Source of the DNA: an uncultured Kiloniellales bacterium
Lineage (GTDB): Bacteria > Actinomycetota > Acidimicrobiia > Spongiisociales > UBA5794
Assembly (NCBI GenBank): GCA_964196275.1
Contig: CAXMSN010000001.1
Coordinates: forward strand, 12,769 to 76,768
DNA length: 64,000 bases
Direction: 5' to 3'
Below the pieces are notes generated by a model. It did not search any database. It saw only the letters and a program-made list of their open reading frames with translations, and was not told the DNA's origin. The stretch's first letter is position 1. Every line of letters begins with the position of its first letter. The position numbers and the translations under genes are program-made. Positions 23,556-60,309 of the stretch are shown piece after piece.

Positions 23556-23708
23556 CGCTCCGGACCATGGACTACGAGGCTTCCCCGTATTACGTATGAC
23601 GTATGACGTACTCCGGAGCGGCCTCGACGTTGTTCTGCTGATTGATCGATCAGAGCCGAGCGGCTTGGTAGAGAGCTACGGGCATTTCCGTGGTCCGTAG
23701 TCCTCTGC
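23556..23708 (+). repeat. Composite TACGTA-hairpin plus GTCCGTAGTCCTCTGC element, copy 2
   Basis: Inverted repeat CGCTCCGG (23556-63) / CCGGAGCG (23613-20) enclosing GGACCATGGACTAC and GTATTACGTATGACGTATGACGTAC. It is followed at 23688-23708 by CCGTGGTCCGTAGTCCTCTGC. It lies between convergent icmF and the Rieske-TPP gene. Confidence 0.55.
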
Positions 23709-25639
23709 TAGTACTGAAGCTTGCTTGAGCGGATGTCCAGGACGCCTGGGCCCTTGGTGGCGAAGAGTTCGGTCATTCCTTCGTCAAGATCTGCGGGCGT
23801 TTCGACGCGTCGGCCGTACATGTCGAGGGAGGTCGCCATGTTGGCCCACGATGGGTTTTTGAGCTTCGTTGCCCATACGTGCGTGTTTGCGAGTTGCTGT
23901 TCTGCGGTGATCTTTCCAAGCTCGTCGTTGGAGAGGACGAGCATCTTCACGTTGAGGTCGTGGAGAGCAACGGTCGCGAGTTCCAGTGCGTACTGGCCGA
24001 ATCCGCCGTCGCCTGCGATGCCCACGATGGTCTTCTCCGGATACGCGGCCGCAGCACCGATCGCGGCCGGCAATGCGTATCCGATCGAACCAAGCCATCC
24101 CGACATCGCGACCCGTTGCCCGTTCGCCTGGAAGTACCGGCCAAAGGAGTAGGTCGAATTGCCAACGTCGAGTGCGACGATCGCGTCGTGGGGAATGTGT
24201 CGTTCAAGAGCCGTGAAGATCGCTGCACTCGTCAGCCGTCCGTCACGATCGAGTCCCAATCTGGATCGCTTCCTCTCGTTCCACCAGGCCTTTCGCGTTT
24301 CCAACCACTCCCGGAGTTCCGGACGATCCTTCGCTGCCGTTACGGTTGTCAGCGCTGTTGCGGTCTCCCCAGCGTCAGCCAGAGCGAACACCTCCACGTT
24401 CGCACCGTTGCGACGAGACGCAAGCGGGTCGGTATCGATCCGAACGACGCGGCGTTTCGGTGTGATCCCCGTGTGGGGAGCCATGCCTCCGCCGAACACG
24501 ACGATCAGATCCGACCGCGTCTGCATCGCGGCGGAAACGGGTGTGCCCGACCTGCCGAGAACGCCTGTCGACAGCGCCGACGTCTCGTCGACGCAACCCT
24601 TCGCCGGGAAGGTCGTCGCAACGGCGGCGTCAACGTGTTCCGCCAGGTCGAGGATGGCGCTGGCGTGCGGTCCGCCGCCCCTGCCGATCACGAACAGCGG
24701 CGTTTCAGCCTCGTCGATCATCCTGGCGATCTCGACGACATCCTGGGGCGTGGGGGAGAGGTGGTTTTCGAGCGGGCGGATGGGGACGTGTACATCGTCA
24801 GTGGCTGGCAATGTCTGGACGTCGTCGGGAATCACAAGATGGGAGATGTCATGCTGCGTTGTTGCATACGTAAGCATGTCGGCTGCCACATCGGGGCCGT
24901 CGCTCGCAGACATTCGCTTTGACCATCCGGCGACAGGCCCCATAGCGCTTACAAGCGGAACTTCCTGGAACGCCCTGGTTCCGAGCAGTTTCGTCGGAAT
25001 CTGGCCCGTGATAGCGAGCAGCGGCGTGTTCGAGAGTTTCGCGTCCCACATTCCGGTGTACAGGTTCGTCGCACCCGGACCCGCGATAGCGAAACAGACA
25101 GCGGGCTTCCCTGTCAGCTTTCCGAACGACGATGCAGCGAACGCTGCCGCACCTTCGTGTCGCACGCCGATGAATCGAAGGTCGCCACGTTTCTCTGCCG
25201 CTCGGAAGGCATCGGCGAGGCCGAGATTCGAGTGTCCGACTATGCCGAAGACCGCTGTGATCCCACCCTCGACGAGTTCGTCCACGACCTGTGTCATGAG
25301 CGTTGTGTCATGGATGACTGGTTCCTCGACTCCAATGTGGATTCCGTCGTCGCGCTCCTCGACGGGAAAGCATTCAACACGGTCATCGAACGGGCCGGGT
25401 GTCTCGCCCGTCTTCGGGTCGTATTCCCAGCCATGCCATGGACAGACGAGCCACTGACCCTCAATGAGACCTTCCCCGAGCGGCCCCCCCTGGTGTGGGC
25501 AGCGGTTGGAGACGGCTCCCCAGCCGTCCTCGGTCCGCGACAGCGCGAGCGTGAAGTGGCCTGCTTGAACCACCGTGACGGTTCCCACGGCGATCTCATC
25601 TGCGTCGGCAACCCGGAACCAAGTAAGCGAATCGGTCAT
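23708..25639 (-). CDS. Rieske [2Fe-2S] domain fused to a thiamine-pyrophosphate/FAD-type (acetolactate synthase/pyruvate oxidase-like) enzyme
   Basis: N-terminal Rieske ligand motifs CPHQGGPL and CPWHGWEY. These are followed by TPP_enzyme N/M/C architecture: catalytic Glu in RHEGAAAFAA, and GDGGFGQY...LSNDELGKI matching the TPP/Mg motif. ATG 25639 preferred over the in-frame GTG 25657, which lies inside a repeat. Confidence 0.8.
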   Translation of the reverse strand: MTDSLTWFRVADADEIAVGTVTVVQAGHFTLALSRTEDGWGAVSNRCPHQGGPLGEGLIEGQWLVCPWHGWEYDPKTGETPGPFDDRVECFPVEERDDGIHIGVEEPVIHDTTLMTQVVDELVEGGITAVFGIVGHSNLGLADAFRAAEKRGDLRFIGVRHEGAAAFAASSFGKLTGKPAVCFAIAGPGATNLYTGMWDAKLSNTPLLAITGQIPTKLLGTRAFQEVPLVSAMGPVAGWSKRMSASDGPDVAADMLTYATTQHDISHLVIPDDVQTLPATDDVHVPIRPLENHLSPTPQDVVEIARMIDEAETPLFVIGRGGGPHASAILDLAEHVDAAVATTFPAKGCVDETSALSTGVLGRSGTPVSAAMQTRSDLIVVFGGGMAPHTGITPKRRVVRIDTDPLASRRNGANVEVFALADAGETATALTTVTAAKDRPELREWLETRKAWWNERKRSRLGLDRDGRLTSAAIFTALERHIPHDAIVALDVGNSTYSFGRYFQANGQRVAMSGWLGSIGYALPAAIGAAAAYPEKTIVGIAGDGGFGQYALELATVALHDLNVKMLVLSNDELGKITAEQQLANTHVWATKLKNPSWANMATSLDMYGRRVETPADLDEGMTELFATKGPGVLDIRSSKLQY

Positions 25640-25650
25640 GGATGCAGAGT

Positions 25651-25692
25651 AGACCACGGACCACGGACTACAGACTTCGGACTACGGAACCT
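25651..25692 (+). repeat. Degenerate heptad array AGACCAC-GGACCAC-GGACTAC-AGACTTC-GGACTAC-GGAACCT
   Basis: Six 7-nt units lying 12 nt upstream of the Rieske-TPP ATG. It reads GTGGTCC on the gene's sense strand. It lies between the lipoprotein gene and the Rieske-TPP gene. Confidence 0.7.
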
Positions 25693-26545
25693 CGATTACC
25701 ACGATCGTGCCTACTTCGGGGTCGATGGCGACGTCCCCTGAGCCGACGAAGATCTCGACCGTGCCCGACGGCCCGTCTGGGATCGAGACGACGAAGGCCT
25801 GCCACGCATCTGTCCATCCTGGCAGCGAGTGCGAGATGTCCGTGACGACCTCGCCGTCTGACACGAGTTGTACCTTGGTGGATGGCTCGCTCGGTGCTGC
25901 GTATCCCTCGACGGTGAAGGGGTAGATCGTCGGACCTGCCGGAGGGGTCACCACGATGGCGGTTCTGGACGTTCCCGCTCCAATCGGGTGGGCATCCGAC
26001 TCCGATGCGATCACGTCGATGACGAGCGTCGACGGGGAGGCAGTCACGAAGGCGCGTGCGGCGATAGCCAGACCATGCCGTCCGTGGATATCGATCGACA
26101 TCGCGTCGTCATCACCTCGTACGACGAACGCTCTTTCAACGAGGTTCCCATCGGCGAGCATGTCGGCGACTGCAGTGTCCGTGAGTTCGGCTGGAAGGGC
26201 AATACGAACCACCGATGCAAAGCTGAGAACCGAGACGCCGGTTGGTCCGAGCGTCTTGGCTGGTGCTCCTGATGTTGACGCGAACGCGATGGTTATCCGC
26301 TCGCACGAAGCAGACCCGTCCCACCGGATGCTCGAGAGCGTCGTGGCATCGCCAACGTCCTCGCCAAGGGCAGCGACGAGTCCGTCCTCACCGAATTTCA
26401 GATCGCCGCTCTTGCAGATCTCGTCGGACGGCTGGGTCGTCGTTGTCGTCACGACCACTGACGTGGTCGTCACCGATGGCGATGGCTCCCCGGGCGAGCA
26501 GGAAGACACCGCAAGGGCGATCAATGCAAGAGTCCACCAGCGCAT
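25682..26545 (-). CDS. Hypothetical secreted lipoprotein
   Basis: Signal peptide plus lipobox (MRWWTLALIALAVSSCS), then a Thr-rich linker (VTTTSVVVTTTTTQ). No recognisable catalytic motif. Sits upstream of the Rieske-TPP gene on the same strand. Confidence 0.6.
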   Translation of the reverse strand: MRWWTLALIALAVSSCSPGEPSPSVTTTSVVVTTTTTQPSDEICKSGDLKFGEDGLVAALGEDVGDATTLSSIRWDGSASCERITIAFASTSGAPAKTLGPTGVSVLSFASVVRIALPAELTDTAVADMLADGNLVERAFVVRGDDDAMSIDIHGRHGLAIAARAFVTASPSTLVIDVIASESDAHPIGAGTSRTAIVVTPPAGPTIYPFTVEGYAAPSEPSTKVQLVSDGEVVTDISHSLPGWTDAWQAFVVSIPDGPSGTVEIFVGSGDVAIDPEVGTIVVIEVP

Positions 26546-26614
26546 GGCTCGCAGGCTACCGCCCGAAGGTTCACACACGAGGAAGCACCGGAGGACGGAC
26601 GTTTTGAGCACGAC

Positions 26615-28045
26615 TTGACAAATGGTCGGGAATTCCCGACAATACCGCCGATGGATGATCTCACCACGTCAGAAGACGAACTCACGACGCCTGGAGAAGA
26701 GTCAGCACCGGCTGATCCGCCACGGTTCGGGCGTACCTTCCTGATCGTGTGGTTCGGACAGGTGATATCGCTCGTAGGCAGCGGACTCACGTGGTTCGGG
26801 CTGAGCATCTGGGTCTTTCTTGAGACGGGATCCGTCACGTCCCTGGCGATGGTGCTCCTTGCATCGAACCTGCCCCGGATCCTTCTGTCTCCGGTCGCCG
26901 GTGCCCTCGTCGACCGGTGGGACCGCCGTTGGGCGATGATCCTGTCCGACGCAGGATCGGGAGTCGGCACGATCATCATCTTCGTGCTGTTCCTCAACGA
27001 TGCGGCGAGCATCACTGCGCTGATCGTCGTGGGCGCCTTCTCCTCAGTGTTCCAGGCGTTCCAATGGCCGGCGTATCAAGCATCGATCTCGCTTCTCGTC
27101 CCGAAGGAGAGTTACCAGCGTGCATCTGGCATGGTGCAGATGGCTGAGGCGATCTCGCAACTCATCGCCCCGTTACTGGCTGCGGTTGCCATCGTCGGGC
27201 TTGGCGTGACGGGACTCGTTCTCATCGATGTGGTCACGTTCACGTTTGCAATCGTGACGTTGCTCGTCGTCCGATTTCCTCGGCCACCGAAGAGTGAGGT
27301 AGGTGAGGAGTCGAAGGGCTCCTTGTGGCAGGAGACGCTGTTCGGTTTCAAGTACATCTTCGCCCGTCATGGTTTGTTCGCTCTTCTCATGTTCTTCGCA
27401 GCGGTGAACTTTGCGTTCGGCTTCCTCGGCCCGATGCTGATCGCTTTCATGCTCAGCGTCGGCAGTGAGACGACGCTTGGCCTGACTGTCACCATCGGAA
27501 GCACGGGCATGCTCGTGGGTTCGATCGTCGCAGCGACCTGGGCGGAGGCAGAACACAAGGTCAAAGGGATCCTTCTTGCCTCGATGGTGCTGGGCACCGT
27601 GATGATCACGATGGGTTGGACAACTTCGCTGGTCATCATCGTTGCATCGATGTGGATTGGGATGTTCTCCGTTCCGATCCTTGGTGCGATGAGCCAGGCG
27701 ATATGGATGGTGAAGGTGGAGCCTGACGTGCAAGGGCGCGTGTTCGCGGTGCGGGGAATGCTCGCTCAGTTGACGTCGCCGCTGGCGCTCTTGGTCGCTG
27801 GACCGCTTGCCGACCGGGTGTTCGTTCCGCTGATGACGGAGTCGTCGGGTCTCGGTGACTTCCTTCAGTCACTCATGGGGAGCGGAACTGCCAGTGGATA
27901 CGGACTGTTCTTCGTGGCGATCGGCGTGTTCGTGATCGCCTCAGCTTTCGTCGCGTGGTCGTACGAACCGTTACGCAATCTTGAGACGGATGTTCCCGAC
28001 GCCGTAGGTCTTCCGTCCGTCGAGACTGCCGCCGACGGCGTCTGA
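26615..28045 (+). CDS. MFS transporter
   Basis: 476 aa with about 12-14 predicted TM helices (LIVWFGQVISLVGSGL...). The alternative start at Met13 (26651) is plausible. Sits directly upstream of cofG. Confidence 0.8.
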   Translation: MTNGREFPTIPPMDDLTTSEDELTTPGEESAPADPPRFGRTFLIVWFGQVISLVGSGLTWFGLSIWVFLETGSVTSLAMVLLASNLPRILLSPVAGALVDRWDRRWAMILSDAGSGVGTIIIFVLFLNDAASITALIVVGAFSSVFQAFQWPAYQASISLLVPKESYQRASGMVQMAEAISQLIAPLLAAVAIVGLGVTGLVLIDVVTFTFAIVTLLVVRFPRPPKSEVGEESKGSLWQETLFGFKYIFARHGLFALLMFFAAVNFAFGFLGPMLIAFMLSVGSETTLGLTVTIGSTGMLVGSIVAATWAEAEHKVKGILLASMVLGTVMITMGWTTSLVIIVASMWIGMFSVPILGAMSQAIWMVKVEPDVQGRVFAVRGMLAQLTSPLALLVAGPLADRVFVPLMTESSGLGDFLQSLMGSGTASGYGLFFVAIGVFVIASAFVAWSYEPLRNLETDVPDAVGLPSVETAADGV

Positions 28046-28075: not shown

Positions 28076-29212
28076 GTGCTCGGTACGCCTGACCCAGATC
28101 TTGCGCTTCGGTTCCTCGATTCTTCTGTCGACGGTTCCGAACTGCTTTCAACGGCATCCTCGCTGAGGAATGACGGTCACGGCACGACGATCACGTACTC
28201 GAAGAAGGTGTTCGTGCCCATCACGACGATGTGCAGGGACACGTGCACCTACTGCACCTTCGTGAAGCCTCCCGGAAACGGTGGCGAATATCTTGAGCCC
28301 GAGGACGTGCTGGCGATAGTGACGGCCGGGGACGAACTCGGCTGCACAGAAGCGCTGTTGACCCTTGGCGACCGACCCGAGGACAAGTGGCCGCAGGCGC
28401 GTCAGTTCCTCTCTGACCATGGGGCTGCTTCGACGCTCGACTACGTGGTGATGATGTCGGAGTTGATACGGGCCGAGACCGGGCTCTTCCCTCACGCCAA
28501 TCCGGGGATCATGGACCGCGAGGCGGTCGCATCGCTGCGCAAGACCAACGTGTCAATGGGCCTCATGCTTGAGAACATCTCGCACCGGCTTACCGAGCCG
28601 GGAATGCCCCATCACAACTGTCCCGACAAGATCCCCGCAGTTCGGGTCGAGACGATCCGGGAAGCCGGTCGCCAGAACGTTCCGTTCACAACCGGCATCC
28701 TTGTCGGTATCGGAGAGACCGCCGAAGAGATCGTCGAAAGCCTGTTCGCGCTGAGGGACCTTCAGACGGAGTTCGGGCATCTTCAGGAGTTCATCATCCA
28801 GAACTTCAGGGCGAAAGCCGACACCCGGATGCGCAACGCACCGGAGCCATCCATACCGTTCTTCGTCCGTGTCGTTGCGCTCGCACGATGGATACTCGGA
28901 GCCGAGGCGAACCTGCAGGTGCCCCCGAACCTGACGGACGACTTCGGTGTCTATCTCGATGCGGGAATCAATGACTGGGGCGGTGTGAGCCCCTTGACGA
29001 TTGACTGGGTCAACCCAGAGGCACCATGGCCGCAGCTCGAAAGACTCGATGCGGTGACGAGCGCCCATGGGTTCTCATTGCGACCCCGCCTCCCCGTCTA
29101 CCCCGAGTACCTCACGGCGCAGTGGATCGATGCCGACCTGTTCGGAGCGGCGTCGGCCGCTGCTACTGAGGACGGCTACGCTGCGACCTCCGAATCTGAG
29201 AAGGCCAGATGA
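28076..29212 (+). CDS. cofG: 7,8-didemethyl-8-hydroxy-5-deazariboflavin (FO) synthase subunit CofG (radical SAM)
   Basis: Radical-SAM CxxxCxxC motif (CRDTCTYCTF) and CofG-like length. ATGA overlap with cofH. Confidence 0.8.
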   Translation: MLGTPDPDLALRFLDSSVDGSELLSTASSLRNDGHGTTITYSKKVFVPITTMCRDTCTYCTFVKPPGNGGEYLEPEDVLAIVTAGDELGCTEALLTLGDRPEDKWPQARQFLSDHGAASTLDYVVMMSELIRAETGLFPHANPGIMDREAVASLRKTNVSMGLMLENISHRLTEPGMPHHNCPDKIPAVRVETIREAGRQNVPFTTGILVGIGETAEEIVESLFALRDLQTEFGHLQEFIIQNFRAKADTRMRNAPEPSIPFFVRVVALARWILGAEANLQVPPNLTDDFGVYLDAGINDWGGVSPLTIDWVNPEAPWPQLERLDAVTSAHGFSLRPRLPVYPEYLTAQWIDADLFGAASAAATEDGYAATSESEKAR

Positions 29213-31080
29213 ACGAGATCACGTTCCTCCAACTACGACCAGTCGATGCGGTCAACGAGATCTGGGCTTCGACGCGCCGCAGAGAAGGAACCCTTGTCGC
29301 TGAGGTGGAGAGACCGACATCTGAGGATGTTCTCAGCGCCCAGAAGGGCGGTCTCATCGTGGCGAGCGGGACAGCGGCCGCTGATGCCCCGGCCTACGTC
29401 GTGATCCCCGCTGAAGCATCGTTGCTCGCCAAGCGGAATCTCGCCGGATGGAGGGTCACGGTGCTCGACGAGGGCTCCCGCATGGATGTGCTCGACGCCC
29501 TTGCCTTCACGCGAGCGGCGTACCTGAGGACGAACCGAAGCTCGGTCCTTCAGGCCGCTGGGATGGTCGGCATTCCCGGAGGAAAAGCCGTCGTGTCTGT
29601 GTTCGTGGATGACGTAGACGACGCCGTCACCGCTGTCTCGCACGGTGCAGGTGACCTTCTGCTCAGAGATTGGGACACGGAGCGGATCGGCGAGCTGAGA
29701 GAGGCGATCGCCGAGTTCAGACTGGTAGAGCGCACCGCGTTTCCCTCCACCGTTACGTATGACGAAGCCGCAGCGGAAATGGAGAAGGGTGCATTCAGCG
29801 CTTACCTGAATCAGATCGATGGATCCGGGCGGGCACGTCCCAGAGTCGACTGGGCGCCAGGCAAGGACCTGGATACACCCGACCCAGAGTTCCGGCTTTC
29901 GTCCGCATGGAAGGACTCGTCATGGGCCGATGGCAGGCGTGCTCACTTCGAAGACGCAACGTCCGACGTAGCCGGAATACTCGCCCGTGCCCTTGCGGGA
30001 ACCGCACCGACGAAGGATGAGGTCGAGGCGCTCTTCCGAGCACACGGCACCGACGTTGAGGCGATCGCCGACGTCGCAGACACGCTCAGAGAGCAGATCG
30101 TCGGGGACGATGTCACCTTCGTCGTGAACAGGAACATCAACTACACGAACCAGTGCTACTTCAAGTGTGGATTCTGTGCGTTCTCCAAGGGGCCCCGATC
30201 GCTGGATCTGAGGGGCGAGCCGTATCTCATGTCGATCGAAGAAGTGGTCGAGAGGTCGGTCGAGGCTTGGGGGACCGGGGCCACAGAGGTGTGCCTCCAG
30301 GGAGGCATCCATCCCGAGTTCACAGGCCACTTCTATGTCGACCTGGTAACCGCGATCAAAGCCGAACTTCCTGACATCCACATCCATGGCTACACGCCCC
30401 TCGAGATCTGGCAAGGCGCCGAAACCGCCGGTGTCAGCGTGAGGGAGCTCTTGGTCGAGTTGCAGCAGGCGGGTCTCGGGACACTCCCGGGTACGGCAGC
30501 TGAGATTCTCGACGACGATGTCCGGCTGACGCTGTGCCCGGACAAGATCCGCACGAGCCAATGGGCCGAGGTCATGCTCACCGCTCATGACATAGGGCTA
30601 CGCACCACTTCGACGATCATGTTCGGGCACGTCGACGGCCCACGGTCGTGGGCGAGCCACATCGAGGTCCTGAGGCGTATCCAGCGCAAAACCGGGGGCT
30701 TCACAGAGTTCGTCCCCCTCCCTTTCGTCCACATGGGCTCACCGATCTGGCTGAGGGGTCAGTCTCGGCCCGGCCCCACATGGGATGAGGTCATCCTGAT
30801 GCACGCGGTGTCGCGCATCGCCTTCATCGGTCTGATCGACAACATTCAGGCATCGTGGGTCAAGTTGGGCCTCGATGGTGCCGGAGCGCTTCTGCGGTCC
30901 GGGTGCAACGACGTCGGTGGAACCCTGATGGATGAGTCGATATCGAGAGCTGCAGGTGCGTCCCACGGAACGCAAGTAACCGCCGCCGACTTCCGTGATC
31001 TGATCTTCGACCTCGATCGCAACCCGGTCAGACGGAACACCACATACGAGCCCATCGAATCCGGTCTCACCATCCAGTAG
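29209..31080 (+). CDS. cofH: FO synthase subunit CofH (radical SAM) with ~230-aa N-terminal domain of unknown function
   Basis: 623 aa. Residues ~240-623 are CofH-like (NINYTNQCYFKCGFCAFSKG radical-SAM motif). Residues 1-230 have no recognisable motif; they include the stretch GGLIVASGTAAADAPAYVVIPAEASLL. Confidence 0.75.
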   Translation: MNEITFLQLRPVDAVNEIWASTRRREGTLVAEVERPTSEDVLSAQKGGLIVASGTAAADAPAYVVIPAEASLLAKRNLAGWRVTVLDEGSRMDVLDALAFTRAAYLRTNRSSVLQAAGMVGIPGGKAVVSVFVDDVDDAVTAVSHGAGDLLLRDWDTERIGELREAIAEFRLVERTAFPSTVTYDEAAAEMEKGAFSAYLNQIDGSGRARPRVDWAPGKDLDTPDPEFRLSSAWKDSSWADGRRAHFEDATSDVAGILARALAGTAPTKDEVEALFRAHGTDVEAIADVADTLREQIVGDDVTFVVNRNINYTNQCYFKCGFCAFSKGPRSLDLRGEPYLMSIEEVVERSVEAWGTGATEVCLQGGIHPEFTGHFYVDLVTAIKAELPDIHIHGYTPLEIWQGAETAGVSVRELLVELQQAGLGTLPGTAAEILDDDVRLTLCPDKIRTSQWAEVMLTAHDIGLRTTSTIMFGHVDGPRSWASHIEVLRRIQRKTGGFTEFVPLPFVHMGSPIWLRGQSRPGPTWDEVILMHAVSRIAFIGLIDNIQASWVKLGLDGAGALLRSGCNDVGGTLMDESISRAAGASHGTQVTAADFRDLIFDLDRNPVRRNTTYEPIESGLTIQ

Positions 31081-31154: not shown

Positions 31155-31748
31155 ATGGCGACCAGACAGACGTCGGATGATGTGCGCGATGCGATGTTCG
31201 ATGCTGCGCGGGACCTGATCGCGCAGATCGGTTACAGCGAAATGTCTCACGCCGATATCACCGCCGCCGTCGGCATGGGGCGCACGACCTTCTATGAACA
31301 TTTCGCCTCCAAGGAGGATCTCCTGGTGGCGATGGTCAATCGAGATCTCCCCGAGGTGACGGTCGAGATCGTCGAGGCGGTCCCAGCCGATCTGCCACCG
31401 GACGAACGCCTCGCTCAGCTTGCCATGCGGATGGTTCAGTTCGTTGGCACGGACCACATGGGTCTCATCCTGCACACGGAGGTACCGCGCCTCTCCCCGG
31501 AGGCGCAGAAGGCGATCTCGGAGGCCCATGAGGGCCTTGCATCAGAATTCGCGAACGTCTACCGGGCGGGCGTCGTGTCTGGCGTGTTCAGGCGATATCC
31601 ACCACGCCTTGCCGGCCGGATGATCGAGCAGATGATCATGACCGGGGGCCAGGTCGTGATGGACTCCGATGACCCTGTCGGTCAGGTCGATTCGATCGCC
31701 CAAGACACAGCCTCGCTCCTCGTGGCGGCTTTCAGGGCTGGCGCCTGA
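31155..31748 (+). CDS. TetR-family transcriptional regulator
   Basis: N-terminal HTH (ITAAVGMGRTTFYEHFASKEDLL). 197 aa. Ends 21 nt upstream of trmD. Confidence 0.8.
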   Translation: MATRQTSDDVRDAMFDAARDLIAQIGYSEMSHADITAAVGMGRTTFYEHFASKEDLLVAMVNRDLPEVTVEIVEAVPADLPPDERLAQLAMRMVQFVGTDHMGLILHTEVPRLSPEAQKAISEAHEGLASEFANVYRAGVVSGVFRRYPPRLAGRMIEQMIMTGGQVVMDSDDPVGQVDSIAQDTASLLVAAFRAGA

Positions 31749-39223: not shown

Positions 39224-40102
39224 ATGGGTGCCACCAACATCTCTACATCGATCGACGCATATCTGCAGCGGTGTGCGATCGAACGCGGTCTTTCAACGAA
39301 TACGCTCGTTGCGTATGAGAGGGACTTGACAGCCTTCAACGAGTTCTGCGCCCGGTATGGCGTGTCAGGCCTCGACGACATTGACCGAAGGCTCGTGAGA
39401 CGCTTCATCGCGAACCTCTCCACTCGCGGCTACGCATCTCGCTCAGTAGCTCGCAAGGCATCATCGGTACGAGGCTTCCTTGCGGACGCTGCGAATCACG
39501 ATCTCATCGCTGCCAATCCAGCCGAAGGCGTTCCGCAGCCAAAGACGCCGGGCACGTTACCGAAGGCGATACCGGCCGGTTCACTCGGCGCGCTGATCGA
39601 TGCCGTCGACGGTGATGAACCGGTCGATGTACGCGACCGGGCGATCCTCGAAATGCTGTACGGAACCGGCGTCAGGGTGTCCGAACTCGCTGCCCTGCGC
39701 GTCGCAGATGTGACCGCGGGTGCGTTCTTGGTGGTCACAGGGAAGGGCAACAAACAGCGTTCGATCCCCATAAGCAATACGGTGACCGATGCTGTGGAGT
39801 CGTATCTGGGCTCGCCGCGCGAGCGGTTGCTCGATGGCCGGATGAGTCCGATGCTGTGGATCGGCGTTCGTGGTGGCGATCTCTCGTCCCGCGGTATCCG
39901 CCGTGTTGTACATCACCGCGTCGGATCATTCCCTCACGCGCTTCGTCATTCGTTCGCTACGCATCTCCTCGAAAATGGGGCAGATCTGCGGTCTGTGCAG
40001 GATCTTCTGGGACACTCCGAACTCGCAACGACGCAGATATACACTGCGGTCACCCGAAAGCACCTAACAGACACCTACGAGAGAAGCCACCCGCGTGCCT
40101 GA
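39224..40102 (+). CDS. xerC: Tyrosine recombinase XerC
   Basis: N-terminal SAM-like domain (IDAYLQRCAIERGLSTNTLVAYERDL). C-terminal catalytic region with the R...HxxR...Y residues (LRHSFATHLLENGADLRSVQDLLGHSELATTQIYT). Confidence 0.85.
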   Translation: MGATNISTSIDAYLQRCAIERGLSTNTLVAYERDLTAFNEFCARYGVSGLDDIDRRLVRRFIANLSTRGYASRSVARKASSVRGFLADAANHDLIAANPAEGVPQPKTPGTLPKAIPAGSLGALIDAVDGDEPVDVRDRAILEMLYGTGVRVSELAALRVADVTAGAFLVVTGKGNKQRSIPISNTVTDAVESYLGSPRERLLDGRMSPMLWIGVRGGDLSSRGIRRVVHHRVGSFPHALRHSFATHLLENGADLRSVQDLLGHSELATTQIYTAVTRKHLTDTYERSHPRA

Positions 40103-40868
40103 CCCCCAGGAACAGGAACTGAAAGACCTCTGGACCGAGTTCAAGTCATCTGGTGATGAGCGCGCTCGCGAGGGGCTCATCCTTCACTACTCGCCGCTCG
40201 TCAAGTTCGTAGCCGGAAGGGTCGGTGCGGGGCTTCCGAAGAACGTCGACCATTCCGATCTCGTGTCGTACGGCACGTTCGGTCTCATCGACGCTGTCGA
40301 TAAGTTCGAGCCTGAACGTGGTTTCAAGTTCGAGACCTATGCCGTCAACCGAATCAAAGGTGCCATCCTCGACGAACTGCGTGCGCTCGACTGGGTGCCC
40401 CGATCGGTTCGCTCAAGGGCAAGAGAGATCCAGCGAACCATGGCGGAACTGAACCACACGCTCCAGCGGACGCCGACCGAAGAGGAAGTCGCGGAGTCGA
40501 TGGAAGTGCCACTCGACACGCTGCGGGGCCACCTCGGCGAGATCGCCAATCTCGGTTTCGTCGCGCTCGATGAACTGCTGAACCCATCAGAGAACGCGTC
40601 GGGCTCGATGACCGATGTCCTTCCGGACTCCGGCGCCATAGACCCGTCGGGAAGTTTCGAGAAGGAGGAGACCAGATACATGCTGGCCGACTCCATCAAC
40701 AGGCTTCCAGACCGCGAGCGTCTCGTCCTCACGTTGTACTACTACGAGGGCCTCACGCTCGCAGAGATCGGCGGCGTCCTCAACGTCACCGAGTCACGCA
40801 TCTGTCAGATCCATACCAAAGCAGTGATGAGCCTCCGCAACCGCTTCATAGAACCAGCGTTCAAATAG
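40095..40868 (+). CDS. whiG: Group-3 sigma-70 factor, WhiG/FliA/SigD type
   Basis: Region 2 (FETYAVNRIKGAILDELR), region 3 and region 4 HTH (LTLAEIGGVLNVTESRICQIHTKAV). Start overlaps the xerC stop by 8 nt. Confidence 0.75.
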   Translation: MPDPQEQELKDLWTEFKSSGDERAREGLILHYSPLVKFVAGRVGAGLPKNVDHSDLVSYGTFGLIDAVDKFEPERGFKFETYAVNRIKGAILDELRALDWVPRSVRSRAREIQRTMAELNHTLQRTPTEEEVAESMEVPLDTLRGHLGEIANLGFVALDELLNPSENASGSMTDVLPDSGAIDPSGSFEKEETRYMLADSINRLPDRERLVLTLYYYEGLTLAEIGGVLNVTESRICQIHTKAVMSLRNRFIEPAFK

Positions 40869-41799: not shown

Positions 41800-42414
41800 A
41801 TGGCGGACTTCACGGCGAAGGACGTCCAAGCGCTTCGTCAAGCCACCGGCGCAGGCATGATGGATGCCAAGAAGGCGCTGACCGAGACCGCTGGCGACAT
41901 GGAGAAGGCAGCTGACTACCTCCGTGAAACCGGAGTTGCGTCGGCCGCGAAGCGGTCAGGTCGCGATCAGTCCGAAGGCGTCGTCGGCGTGTACATGCAC
42001 AGCCAGGCGGGAAGGCCTGTCATCGGTGTCCTCATCGGCCTCGTCTCGGAGACGGACTTCGTCGCAAAGAACGAGGAGTTCATCGCAGCGGCGAACGACA
42101 TCGCTATGCACGCGGCCGCTTCGAGGCCCCAGTGGTTGACGCGGGAAGAGGTTCCTGAGGATGCGTTGGAGAAGGAGAAGGAGCTGATCGCAGCTCAGGC
42201 TCGAAACGAAGGCAAACCAGATCAGATCGTCGAGAAGATCGTCGATGGCCGGATCGGATCCTTCTACAAGGAGAACGTCCTCCTCGATCAGGTCTTCGTG
42301 CGGTCAGATAAGTTCGAAGGAACGGTCGGGGACATGGTCCAACAACTCGCCTCCCGCATGGGCGAGAACATCTCGGTCGCTTCCATGGCTAGGGTCGCTG
42401 TCGGAGAGGGCTGA
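41800..42414 (+). CDS. tsf: Elongation factor Ts
   Basis: Starts [27 protein letters not shown]. Sits 3 nt after rpsB. Confidence 0.9.
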
Positions 42415-43764: not shown

Positions 43765-45678
43765 ATGCCAGATGATCCCCGCAACGACACCGAGTCCGGT
43801 GGCTTCGACGATTGGTTGTCCGAAGCGCCTGGCAAGGTCACCGACCCGTATGCCGAATCTGAGCTTGACGGACAAGATTCCGAAAATGACGAGTCTCAGT
43901 CGTCTGTCGACGATCCCGTCCTCGAGGAAGAAGCCGGGGACGACACCGAGCCGGAGTCTTCGGTCGACGATCCAGACCTCGATGAGGAGGCCAGTGACGA
44001 TGCCGAGTCGGAACACCCCGTCGCTGACGATGATGAGACGGCCGAGGCTGTACCCGACGCCGAGCCCCCGACACCTGTGGGTCCAGAAGTCGATCTGAAC
44101 AGCGACAGCGACGAGGACGATGACACGGACGAGGACCCCGTCACCAGTGTCGACGATGAGCGATCGGAGGAACAGGACGATACCGACGACACCGGAGAGA
44201 TCCCCATAGTCGAATCCGTCGAAAACGAACCAGCCGATCTCGCTCCAGAAGAGTTCCACGCCGAACCACTGGTCGAGTTCGAAGCCTTCGACGGCGGAGA
44301 CGAAGCGGACACGGGCGAACTCGAGATCGTCGCCCCCGCGCCCTTCGGTGAGATCGATTCTGGTCAGCAAGAGGCGACCCTCGTGTACGACGGGGCAGTC
44401 GAGTCGGATTCGTCCGTGCTTCCGGATGAATCTTCGGACGAGGACGAGTTGCAAGAGGATGACACATCCGAAGTGCCGATCGTTGCATGGTTCCCCGAAT
44501 CGACCGATGAGGACGTCTCGCAAAGTGACGACTTCGATCCGCTTGAGGACACCGGAGAAGCAGTCTTCGTTTCCGGTGAAGGCGCAAGTATCGCCGCAGC
44601 TGCTGCTGGATTCGGTGATCTTTGGGACGATGACTCAGTCGACGACTCATCCACCAACGACTCTCCGCAGGATGACGACGTCGAGGAGTTCACGCTCGGA
44701 GAAGGCGATCTGTTGCTAGGAGCAACTCAGGAGCACGTCGATCTTGCCGCCGCGATCGCCGCCGCTGAGAACGAGGACACCGAGCAGGTGGCGCTCGTCG
44801 CCGAGATTCCCGGGCTCGAAACGTCGGTTGTGGGCTTCGAAGATGTGGTTGAGGCTGAGGGCCACCGCCGCGTCAGGGCGAGAGCGTCGGGAGACCTCAT
44901 CGCTCGCGTCATCACCGGCATCGTTCTCGTCCTTGCGCTCGGGGCATCTCTCATCTGGCGCCCCGCTCTTGTCGTATTCGCCATAGCGGTGTTCGTTTTG
45001 GGAGCCGGCGAGTTCTACACGGCGCTCGTGCGCACAGACCGAAAGCCGATCGCCCTGTTCGGCTTCATCGGAATCATCGGTGCGAGCGTCGGCGCCTTCT
45101 TCTGGAGTGCAGTCGCGATTCCCATGGCCTTCGTGCTGGCAACCATCCTGTTGCTGCTCTTCTACGCTGTGGTACCTGGCAAGTCGGACCCGATGGGCAA
45201 TCTCGCTCTGACCACAACTGTCATGGTGTGGGCAGGTCTTGGCTCGTTTGCGATGCTCATCGCTCGCTCGGATGACTATCAGGTGCTCATCCTTGGGGTG
45301 GTTGTCGCCGTCGCGGCCGCTGACATAGCGGCGTTCTTTGTGGGTCGATCACTTGGACGCACACACTTCGCCCCATGGGTCTCGCCGAAGAAGACGGTTG
45401 AGGGACTGGTAGCGGGCATCGTGGTTGCCTTGGGCGTCGGAGCGATGCTTCACTTCTTCCCTCCCTTCGAACTCACCTCTGGCCTCGCCATAGGCGCAGC
45501 TGCAGCGTTTCTGACACCGGTCGGTGACCTCGCCATGTCCGCTGCCAAGCGATCCTTGGGCCTCAAGGACATGGGCTCAGTCCTTCCTGGCCACGGCGGA
45601 TTCCTCGATCGTATCGATGGCCTTCTTTTCGTCATTCCCGTCGCGTGGGCAGTGTTCATCTGGGCTGGCCTCCTCTGA
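43765..45678 (+). CDS. cdsA: Phosphatidate cytidylyltransferase CdsA with ~350-aa acidic low-complexity N-terminal extension
   Basis: The C-terminal ~280 aa are a polytopic CdsA core (CTP-transferase signature region SAAKRSLGLKDMGSVLPGHGGFLDRIDG). Residues 1-~350 are D/E-rich (~40% acidic) with internal repeats: SVDDPVLEEEAGDDTEPE / SVDDPDLDEEASDDAESE. Confidence 0.8.
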   Translation: MPDDPRNDTESGGFDDWLSEAPGKVTDPYAESELDGQDSENDESQSSVDDPVLEEEAGDDTEPESSVDDPDLDEEASDDAESEHPVADDDETAEAVPDAEPPTPVGPEVDLNSDSDEDDDTDEDPVTSVDDERSEEQDDTDDTGEIPIVESVENEPADLAPEEFHAEPLVEFEAFDGGDEADTGELEIVAPAPFGEIDSGQQEATLVYDGAVESDSSVLPDESSDEDELQEDDTSEVPIVAWFPESTDEDVSQSDDFDPLEDTGEAVFVSGEGASIAAAAAGFGDLWDDDSVDDSSTNDSPQDDDVEEFTLGEGDLLLGATQEHVDLAAAIAAAENEDTEQVALVAEIPGLETSVVGFEDVVEAEGHRRVRARASGDLIARVITGIVLVLALGASLIWRPALVVFAIAVFVLGAGEFYTALVRTDRKPIALFGFIGIIGASVGAFFWSAVAIPMAFVLATILLLLFYAVVPGKSDPMGNLALTTTVMVWAGLGSFAMLIARSDDYQVLILGVVVAVAAADIAAFFVGRSLGRTHFAPWVSPKKTVEGLVAGIVVALGVGAMLHFFPPFELTSGLAIGAAAAFLTPVGDLAMSAAKRSLGLKDMGSVLPGHGGFLDRIDGLLFVIPVAWAVFIWAGLL

Positions 45679-59310: not shown

Positions 59311-60309
59311 ATGTTCGTTGCGATCGCAACAGCGGTTCTGCTCGCAATTCCCGTCTTCGAGTCTGATCCAGTATCGCCTGCCGGTGGTCTTGGACTCTCG
59401 CCGAATCCGATCGTTCGCAGCATTGGAGCGGCATCGCCGCCGTCCCGTTCTGCGTTGCCCGTCTCGCTTCCGTTCGCAGGGGTAGCGGTCACCGCTGCTG
59501 GTGCGGCGGCTATCTACCGGCGAAGACGCAACGACTCTCCATTGCTCGTGGTCGTGCATGGGCACGGCGGCGATGCGGAGAACTTCGATCGCCTGATCGA
59601 CATGATGGACATCGATGGAGCAAGGGTCGTCGCGTTCGATTACAGCTGGGCCGACGGCGGGACGGACTCAACGTCGTCGTCTCGATCCGTGCCGACAGCC
59701 GCAGCGGCTATCGCGCTGGATGCGTTCATGCGCCAACTGGCTGTGACGAACTCGAATATGTACTCCCTGCACCACTCCAAGGGCGGAGCAGTCGGCGTTT
59801 CGATGATCGCATCGCTCGACGACGGTTCACGGCCACCGATCGACGGGTACCAGGGGGCAGCACTTCTGGACCCAGCAATCGCTTCTGGGTTCCTAGGAGA
59901 GCTTCAATCCTCGGGCCAGGGACACGGTTGGCTTCCTGACGATGGCGGCTTCGATCCGATCCACTGCGATGACACGGGATGCACCGATGTACGCCATCAC
60001 CTCGGCGAAGCATCCGGTGTCGAGGTGATCGCCGTCCGGAACCGGGATGCCCTTGTGACGAACTTCACCGATCGACCTGACGGTCTTCGGGTCTTCGACC
60101 TGCACGATGGGCTTCCCAGTGCACTCGCGTACGGCGGATTCCTCCTCCCTCGAATCATCCAGGCCCACAACTCCGTGCTGAACCACAAGGATGTCGCCAA
60201 CTGTGTGAAAGCAGAGGTCAGCCTCCCTGGCTCATGCGAATGGGGTGTCGAACCGCGGCGCCAACGATTCAGAGGCGGAGGATCGCGTCGCATGAATCTT
60301 GTTCTGTAG
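59311..60309 (+). CDS. Secreted alpha/beta-hydrolase, lipase class 2-like
   Basis: Signal peptide (MFVAIATAVLLAIPVFE), an oxyanion region (VVVHGHGGD) and a nucleophile elbow (LHHSKGGAV, resembling AHSMGG). Confidence 0.6.
   Translation: MFVAIATAVLLAIPVFESDPVSPAGGLGLSPNPIVRSIGAASPPSRSALPVSLPFAGVAVTAAGAAAIYRRRRNDSPLLVVVHGHGGDAENFDRLIDMMDIDGARVVAFDYSWADGGTDSTSSSRSVPTAAAAIALDAFMRQLAVTNSNMYSLHHSKGGAVGVSMIASLDDGSRPPIDGYQGAALLDPAIASGFLGELQSSGQGHGWLPDDGGFDPIHCDDTGCTDVRHHLGEASGVEVIAVRNRDALVTNFTDRPDGLRVFDLHDGLPSALAYGGFLLPRIIQAHNSVLNHKDVANCVKAEVSLPGSCEWGVEPRRQRFRGGGSRRMNLVL

Follow-up and report, generated by a model that had tools for sequence, protein, structure and literature searches.

A conserved N-terminal domain of CofH, predicted to be a TIM barrel, at an FO synthase locus of Acidimicrobiia

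FO synthase genes and the domain layout of CofH

The stretch of DNA analyzed in this study (the window) comprises 64,000 nucleotides of contig CAXMSN010000001.1 (positions 12,769 to 76,768, forward strand) in the assembly GCA_964196275.1 of an uncultured bacterium placed in the Acidimicrobiia. It carries the two genes of an FO synthase, cofG and cofH, and the CofH protein has approximately 228 additional residues in front of the part that corresponds to known CofH proteins. The reaction of FO synthase is the committed step in making the deazaflavins FO and F420; these compounds are used in photolyases, antibiotic biosynthesis, prodrug activation, and methanogenesis. The cofG gene (28076..29212, + strand) encodes a radical S-adenosylmethionine (radical-SAM) subunit of 378 residues that matches TIGR03550 with 441.5 bits against a cut-off of 213, and its CX3CX2C motif reads CRDTCTYC. 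The cofH open reading frame (ORF; 29209..31080, + strand) encodes 623 residues and begins within the end of cofG, where the start and stop codons overlap in the tetranucleotide ATGA (29209..29212, +); this overlap was read directly from the DNA and corresponds to translational coupling. A separate cofG gene of 378 codons coupled through ATGA to a long CofH of 623 residues had been described in an earlier reading of the DNA without database searches (the sequence-only reading), and both the ORFs and the sequence confirm this description.

The radical-SAM core and the CofH_C domain of CofH (residues 268 to 617), together with the stop codon, occupy 30010..31080 (+) and are covered by TIGR03551, PF04055, and PF19288. 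TIGR03551 matches residues 268 to 616 with 494.2 bits (cut-off, 374.1), and Pfam places Radical_SAM at residues 310 to 483 and CofH_C at residues 497 to 617 (PF19288, 53 bits against 27). The CX3CX2C motif of CofH, CYFKCGFC (30154-30177, +), spans residues 316 to 323 with C316, C320, and C323 and is invariant in the alignment, and there is no cysteine in residues 1 to 300. Among the models tried, the model of fused FbiC (NF006687) gives the lowest E-value for each subunit; it matches CofH from residue 252 on, and its scores for the separate subunits (538.7 and 484.8 bits) are each below its cut-off of 1018 bits. Both subunits pass the equivalog-domain cut-offs, which we counted for their identity, and by this measure CofG and CofH are assigned as the FO synthase of an Acidimicrobiia bacterium, set in a conserved rimM-trmD housekeeping block. 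The core of CofH is, as judged from its family models, a genuine CofH, and a transfer of 4-hydroxybenzyl from tyrosine to diaminouracil is the predicted activity of this family (5-amino-6-(D-ribitylamino)uracil--L-tyrosine 4-hydroxyphenyl transferase).

Three segments precede the core. Residues 1 to 205 (29209..29823, +) are an N-terminal accessory domain that is predicted to be a minimal (βα)8 TIM barrel, and residues 206 to 228 (29824..29892, +) are a clade-specific conserved segment with the pattern DGSG-RPR-x2-WAPGKD-x3-P. Residues 229 to 267 (29893..30009, +) are a pre-core segment that is common to the interdomain region of fused FbiC. In a BLASTP alignment, residues 229 to 613 of CofH pair with residues 413 to 800 of the 823-residue FbiC of Rhodococcus at 54% identity, and R229-x-S231-x2-W234 corresponds to RRSTVW in the interdomain region of this FbiC, in which the segment of residues 206 to 228 is absent. 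Because the alignment begins at residue 229, the clade-specific addition is taken to be residues 1 to approximately 228, i.e., the barrel and the DGSG-RPR-x2-WAPGKD segment; by this alignment, it is an insertion exactly at the CofG|CofH junction of FbiC.

Conservation and predicted fold of the N-terminal domain

A search with residues 1 to 250 returned 32 proteins, all of them from Acidimicrobiia or Actinomycetota metagenomes, and those that are long enough run on into the radical-SAM motif of CofH. An exhaustive profile search of 1.84 billion representative proteins gave 126 members, which are mostly fragments; no stand-alone barrel is shown among these members, and those that are long enough either continue into CofH or follow CofG. 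At least 295 genomes of GTDB species representatives, mostly Acidimicrobiia, encode the domain, and the best 80 of these 295 hits (almost all metagenome-assembled genomes of Acidimicrobiia) were compared at the level of the locus together with four metagenome contigs. The cofG gene is separate and lies directly upstream of the barrel-containing cofH in all 80 loci in which this region is visible, usually with an overlap of 1, 4, 7, or 10 bp, and a fusion of cofG with cofH was found in none of the 80 GTDB loci. Two candidates for single-chain fusions of CofG, barrel, and CofH (P0135 and P0145) were rejected as Arg/Pro/Ala-rich frameshifted translations from high-GC, error-prone assemblies. The 69 intact full-length orthologs range from 617 to 647 residues (median, 622). 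NCBI and JGI already use the names CofH or FO synthase for more than 120 database clusters whose full-length identity is at least 70%.

Another explanation of the N-terminal region would be an artefact of annotation or assembly, i.e., a frameshifted upstream gene, or else a decaying remnant without function. The ORF is indeed split in 5 of 83 related loci, and some database entries are frameshifted; however, the split cases stem from source assemblies that are visibly frameshifted in translation, and the barrel and CofH lie in a single ORF in the other 78 loci, with the intact length of 617 to 647 residues in these loci and in the database proteins mentioned above. The G+C content at third codon positions (GC3) is 0.74 across the cofH ORF, and the Nei-Gojobori dN/dS ratios of close pairs are 0.07 to 0.13 (approximately 0.1) for the barrel and 0.05 to 0.06 for the core. 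On average, the orthologs are identical to the window protein at 54% of the positions in the barrel, 52% of those in residues 206 to 250, and 75% of those in the core. The N-terminal extension is real, conserved, and under purifying selection. Together with the confident fold prediction described below, these data leave next to no probability for an artefact or a remnant, and this explanation, of which the mis-called upstream ORF considered with the sequence-only reading is one form, is effectively refuted.

In 71 sequences, among them the divergent proteins of Miltoncostaea oceani (described below) and P0042, 24 positions do not vary. Twelve of them, T84, R107, P123, S130, G146, A147, D149, W155, L163, R164, E174, and R175, lie in the barrel, and the other twelve, R210, P211, W215, P217, G218, P224, R229, S231, W234, D236, W239, and L258, follow it. 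The invariant polar residues are located on the five consecutive strands β4 to β8 (T84, R107, S130, D149, and E174/R175, respectively), with W155 and R164 nearby. Arg10, Arg110, and Arg153 are invariant in Acidimicrobiia and are lost in M. oceani and P0042.

The fold was predicted with AlphaFold2, using an alignment of 20 sequences for the isolated domain and one of 64 sequences for the full-length protein. In the model of the isolated domain, eight βα units and one extra strand are formed by approximately 200 residues, the predicted local distance difference test score (pLDDT) is mostly above 90 for residues 1 to 200, and residues 213 to 250 are disordered. The full-length model has a predicted TM score (pTM) of 0.84, and in it the pLDDT of residues 206 to 250 rises from approximately 40 to 71-92 (71-88 for residues 206 to 228). 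Since this segment is ordered only in the full-length model, the prediction implies that it lies against the CofH core and that barrel and core are arranged in a defined way. Residues 1 to 205 are accordingly predicted to be a compact (βα)8 TIM barrel.

Foldseek comparisons of the barrel with the PDB gave generic barrels only, with TM scores of 0.45 to 0.55, identities of 10 to 18%, and a probability of 1.0 for many TIM barrels. The matches include an archaeal triosephosphate isomerase, IGPS, HisA, and several de novo designed TIM barrels; a barrel fold is supported by the model, and no specific family is supported. The core of the CofH model, on the other hand, matches MqnE (6xi9/6xig) with a target-normalized TM score of 0.80 and approximately 29% identity. 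No solved structure was found that includes both the barrel and the core, and no structure of CofG, CofH, or FbiC is present in the PDB sequence set.

At the level of sequence, residues 1 to 244 have no Pfam match and only noise in NCBIfam, and a search of 69 barrels against Pfam at E ≤ 10 gave no consistent family. When the barrel profile was compared with the PDB sequences, the best match was the barrel of the type II quinolinate phosphoribosyltransferase (QPRTase) 1o4u, which is not significant (E = 0.2, 14 bits, 86 columns), and QPRTase is outside the top 50 Foldseek matches. A resemblance of the barrel motif VSVFVDDV..A..GA.DLLLRDW to QPRTase had been noted before this profile match and is a lead, not a finding. 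A diverged or degenerate radical-SAM core was rejected as the origin of the barrel, i.e., the hhalign probability against the CofG and CofH cores is 0.2 to 0.3%, whereas the control comparison of CofG with CofH gives 97%; an internal duplication of a half-barrel was also rejected, with no hhalign signal. In these searches, the barrel is without a detectable sequence homolog apart from the copies at the N-terminus of CofH. The claim of the sequence-only reading that CofH carries an extra, unexplained N-terminal domain of approximately 230 residues that could not be assigned to CofC, CofD, or CofE is borne out by the missing Pfam and NCBIfam matches, the purifying selection, and the predicted TIM barrel; the domain is none of these three proteins, and no annotated domain was matched in Pfam, NCBIfam, or the PDB sequences.

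Gene neighborhood and the link to F420

A transporter gene of the major facilitator superfamily (MFS), of the DHA3/Mef/EntS-like exporter type, is located at 26615..28045 (+), has the same orientation as cofG, and ends 30 bp before it (PF07690, E = 3.5e-33; TIGR00900, 196 bits, below the cut-off). The true start of this gene is probably the ATG at 26651 (MDDLTT...) and not the mechanical TTG start. The only candidate from a scan for promoters and terminators is the promoter-like TTGACA-17-GACAAT at 26615-26643, before the MFS gene; it overlaps the mechanical TTG start and is no more than chance expectation. A start at 26651 would leave a short divergent intergenic region common to the MFS gene and a Gmad2-like gene on the opposite strand (25682-26611, -), which encodes a probable secreted protein of 309 residues without a Pfam match. 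The latter gene is syntenic upstream of cofG in 29 loci, and its homolog in locus L003 has a weak precomputed Gmad2 match. On the other side, a gene for a TetR-family regulator (31155..31748, +; PF00440 and PF17932) starts 74 bp after cofH.

The barrel-containing cofGH genes occur in two contexts: approximately half of the loci lie in the rimM...trmD block, and the rest lie elsewhere, typically after flavin reductase and SDR genes and before an Lhr helicase gene. In the loci L002 and L004 and in about 25 of the loci L035 to L084, a flavin reductase gene (PF01613, HpaC/StyB-like) and an SDR gene are directly upstream of cofG in the same orientation, with a Usp gene further upstream; the radical-SAM clusters could receive their electrons from this flavin reductase. 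Of the 34 syntenic loci in which the upstream sequence is long enough, 19 have the orthologous MFS gene immediately before cofG, as does 1 of the 30 non-syntenic loci (26 of 84 loci overall, with MFS identities of 42 to 66%); close relatives without the gene include UBA5794. The TetR gene precedes trmD by 13 to 40 bp in 19 of 19 loci and is anywhere from 44 to 5350 bp away from cofH, and in some genomes an ECF sigma factor and an ABC transporter of the iron-siderophore type are inserted between cofH and the TetR gene. From this distribution, the MFS gene looks like a variable member of the syntenic block and not like a partner that moves with cofGH, and the TetR gene tracks trmD, not cofH.

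A protein search of the PLSDB plasmids identified a relative in Miltoncostaea oceani SCSIO 61214, an isolate of the Thermoleophilia, on the 46.6-kb plasmid NZ_CP064358.1 (locus L088). Its cofG (406 residues) overlaps by 4 bp with a cofH of 616 residues (WP_217925219.1) that is 59% identical to the window protein, and the N-terminus of this CofH matches the barrel profile with an hhalign probability of 100% (E = 6e-49). The architecture is the same as in the window, i.e., a separate cofG is followed by the barrel, the motif, and the CofH core, whereas the M. oceani genes are plasmid-borne, have no MFS or TetR neighbors, and do not keep several of the barrel residues that are invariant in Acidimicrobiia. 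Directly downstream on the other strand are genes for an FAD-dependent oxidoreductase, cofE, cofC, cofD, and a DMT transporter. Because cofE-cofC-cofD adjoin the barrel-containing cofH, the gene content of this plasmid indicates that this form of CofH is used within a complete F420 pathway in M. oceani. A search with the CofD of M. oceani returned only close plasmid-type relatives; those that are at least 78% identical make up more than 120 clusters, many of them on metagenome contigs of approximately 42 to 48 kb that are binned to different phyla, which suggests that F420 genes of the M. oceani type are a widespread plasmid-like element.

The sequence-only reading had reported no cofC, cofD, or cofE in the window, and this proved correct in the ORF annotation and by tblastn. 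Among the window ORFs scanned, which are almost all of those called, there is no match to cofC, cofD, cofE, an F420-dependent enzyme, or a photolyase, and tblastn queries taken from annotated plasmids (authentic CofC, CofD, CofE, and FbiB) found none in the window or within ±10 kb of 87 related loci, so that F420 genes do not adjoin the locus there either. The absence of cofC/D/E from 64 kb says little, however; fbiC of Mycobacterium tuberculosis, for example, is not linked to fbiA/B/D. A Ddn-family deazaflavin-dependent nitroreductase is encoded approximately 2.5 kb from cofG in the locus L004 (TIGR00026, 95.9 bits against a cut-off of 46). A small nitroreductase gene near cofG in UBA5794 was rejected as a homolog of the FbiB C-terminal domain or FbiE (27 bits against a cut-off of 250), and a luciferase-like (LLM) gene that adjoins cofH in L002 is below all F420-specific cut-offs. 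The F420 pathway, together with F420-dependent oxidoreductases, has been reported for the Ca. Actinomarinales, which belong to the Acidimicrobiia (PMC7771536). The window locus most likely feeds a normal F420 pathway that is encoded elsewhere in the genome.

The sequence-only reading suggested instead that the locus may be a unit for FO production and export rather than an F420 pathway. In such a model, the MFS gene, cofG, cofH, and the TetR gene would form a self-contained unit of an organism that makes FO (e.g., for a deazaflavin photolyase or as a public good) but no F420. The exporter-type family of the MFS protein, its orientation and its distance of 30 bp from cofG, the orthologous gene in the same position in 26 loci, and the negative tblastn searches are consistent with such a unit. 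Deazaflavin clusters of other organisms have transporter neighbors as well, the DMT transporter in the case of M. oceani and an ABC transporter in that of P. rhizoxinica (PMC8498797). However, the MFS gene is missing from 15 of the 34 syntenic loci (including UBA5794) and from 29 of the 30 non-syntenic ones, and the TetR gene belongs with trmD. No photolyase was found among the window ORFs scanned, and an Rfam scan of the whole 64 kb gave no family at the gathering threshold, i.e., no rRNA and no riboswitch, including those of the FMN/flavin type. The loose linkage of the MFS and TetR genes, the same form of CofH in the complete F420 cluster of M. oceani, the F420H2-dependent enzyme of the Ddn family near cofG in L004, the F420 pathway reported for Acidimicrobiia, and the separation of fbiC from the other F420 genes in M. 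tuberculosis make the export unit unlikely, and neither the MFS gene nor the TetR gene travels with cofGH across the loci.

The remainder of the window is a housekeeping block, in which nearly every ORF could be annotated after gene calling by GC3. The gene order is recG, rsmD, coaD, plsX, smc, ftsY, cdd, etfBA, deoA, ffh, rimM, and icmF, followed by a gene for a fusion of a Rieske domain with a thiamine pyrophosphate (TPP)-dependent enzyme, the gene for the Gmad2-like secreted protein, MFS, cofG, cofH, and TetR. Next are trmD, rplS, an HhH-GPD glycosylase gene, lepB, DUF2469, yraN, an enoyl-CoA hydratase gene, yifB, xerC, and a gene for a whiG-type sigma factor, and the last part consists of rpsB, tsf, frr, a cdsA fusion, dxr, rseP, ispG, proS, rimP, nusA, infB, nrnA, ribF, an ahcY-like gene, a RidA-family gene, and pnp.

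Several of these genes have features of their own. The Rieske-TPP fusion enzyme (23708-25657, -; 649 residues) has a Rieske [2Fe-2S] domain (residues 12 to 87) at the N-terminus of a pyruvate-oxidase/acetolactate-synthase-like enzyme; this fusion is kept in 8 related loci at 69 to 75% identity and is an unusual pairing with no obvious known function. In the 637-residue protein encoded at 43765-45675 (+), CdsA (PF01148) accounts for only the C-terminal ~250 residues, and the N-terminal ~380 residues are without a Pfam match. The tsf ORF (41800-42414, +; 204 residues) matches only positions 1 to 93 of the 293 positions of the EF-Ts model, which points to either a short EF-Ts or a frameshift, and pyrH, which is expected after tsf, was not called by the simple gene finder used. 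The 332-residue protein encoded at 59311-60309 (+) has no Pfam match and only a faint similarity to α/β-hydrolases. The WhiG/FliA-type sigma factor gene that adjoins xerC (40095-40868, +) scores 341 bits with NF004935, just under the cut-off of 343.

Role of the barrel and comparison with known systems

The evidence leans slightly toward an ordinary FO synthase locus with a clade-specific accessory module on CofH, with the MFS and TetR genes as members of the surrounding synteny block and not as dedicated components. The module would be an adaptor without radical-SAM function that organizes a non-covalent CofG:CofH complex and thereby functionally replaces the covalent link of FbiC; it may act by docking CofG, by shaping the route of the CofH product to CofG, or by both. 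This role is a tentative proposal that falls somewhat short of probable. It is favored because the module sits at the CofG|CofH junction while cofG and cofH are strictly translationally coupled, because the barrel is short-looped and idealized with no stand-alone copy identified among the hits examined, and because the segment after the barrel is ordered only in the full-length context of the model.

Several points weigh against this reading. Where the orthologous MFS gene is present, it is always co-oriented with cofG at a distance of 40 to 182 bp (439 bp in one case), so it is probably co-transcribed with cofG and a functional link is conceivable, and the tblastn searches described above found no CofC, CofD, CofE, or FbiB gene near the related loci; neither they nor the search with the CofD of M. 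oceani gave F420 genes in the window genome or in an Acidimicrobiia genome with the long CofH. With regard to the adaptor, other split CofG/CofH systems need no such domain, and invariant polar residues on five consecutive strands fit a TIM barrel that binds a ligand or catalyzes a reaction better than one that serves purely as a scaffold. Moreover, in the summary that PMC8498797 gives of Philmus et al. 2015, the domains of FbiC act independently and the intermediate diffuses, and a docking function is therefore not obviously needed.

As the main alternative, the barrel might be a small-molecule-binding or catalytic domain that acts in cis on the FO synthase reaction. Its task could be to supply or produce a substrate (tyrosine, or 5-amino-6-ribitylamino-uracil from its 5'-phosphate), handle a by-product (2-iminoacetate or 5'-deoxyadenosine), or sense FO or F420 for feedback. 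The strands β4 to β8, on which the invariant polar residues lie, are the usual location of the active site in TIM barrels, and the strong purifying selection, the QPRTase barrel 1o4u as the best, though not significant, PDB sequence match, and several pyruvate- or phosphoenolpyruvate-using barrels among the Foldseek matches point in the same direction. However, neither the Pfam scan of 69 members nor NCBIfam nor the PDB sequence profile gave significant similarity to an enzyme family, the barrel has only very short loops, and idealized de novo barrels are among its best structural matches. The barrel has no cysteine and no conserved histidine, which makes metal-dependent chemistries of the amidohydrolase or PHP type unlikely, and Arg10, Arg110, and Arg153 are not kept outside Acidimicrobiia (M. 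oceani and P0042). An independent enzyme would also be expected to occur as a stand-alone copy, unlike what is seen among the hits examined, which are mostly fragments. We regard a ligand-binding or catalytic role as doubtful on this evidence.

The broader proposal that the barrel is an unrecognized functional component of FO synthase, either a new family of ligand-binding or catalytic TIM barrels or a docking module that channels between CofG and CofH, appears rather unlikely to us as well. If it were true, a ligand-binding or catalytic barrel would contribute a further step to the synthesis of deazaflavins, for instance by providing a substrate or taking care of a by-product, whereas a docking module would give a channeled CofG:CofH complex, unlike the free diffusion reported for FbiC.

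Under the preferred reading of an ordinary FO synthase with an accessory module, as under the alternatives, the domain itself is new to Pfam and NCBIfam, although the proteins are already public under the name CofH, and a full-text literature search found no paper that describes an N-terminal barrel domain of CofH. The unannotated domain family is a candidate addition to the domain databases, and for genome annotation a "CofH" of 620 residues is normal in these lineages and not an error. To our knowledge, the cooperation of the two radical-SAM halves of FO synthase is known from product analysis only. A constrained domain at the CofG|CofH junction in hundreds of species of Acidimicrobiia and at least one species of Thermoleophilia is a natural handle on how the subunits cooperate, and M. 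oceani, as a cultured carrier, makes the question of the barrel experimentally tractable.

The closest analogs in concept are ThiH-ThiG and HydG, in which a radical-SAM barrel of the tyrosine-lyase type is combined with a second protein or domain that processes a fragment from the reaction. ThiG also has the TIM-barrel fold; no sequence similarity or specific structural similarity of the CofH barrel to ThiG or to the C-terminal domain of HydG was detected, and the likeness is an analogy only. The closest solved structure is that of the aminofutalosine synthase MqnE (6xi9/6xig), which has the radical-SAM TIM-barrel core in common with the window CofH, whereas it has no N-terminal barrel and catalyzes a different reaction in menaquinone biosynthesis. 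The stand-alone CofH of archaea and cyanobacteria (TIGR03551) has the same type of core and a separate upstream CofG, as in the window, but is approximately 360 to 390 residues long; the window CofH differs from it in the ~228 extra N-terminal residues and in the pre-core segment of the FbiC type. In FbiC of Actinobacteria (NF006687), the domain order, CofG and then CofH, is the same as the gene order in the window. FbiC is, however, a single polypeptide with a linker of approximately 40 to 60 residues at the junction of its two domains, whereas the window locus encodes two polypeptides from genes joined by the ATGA overlap, with approximately 228 residues inserted at the corresponding position.

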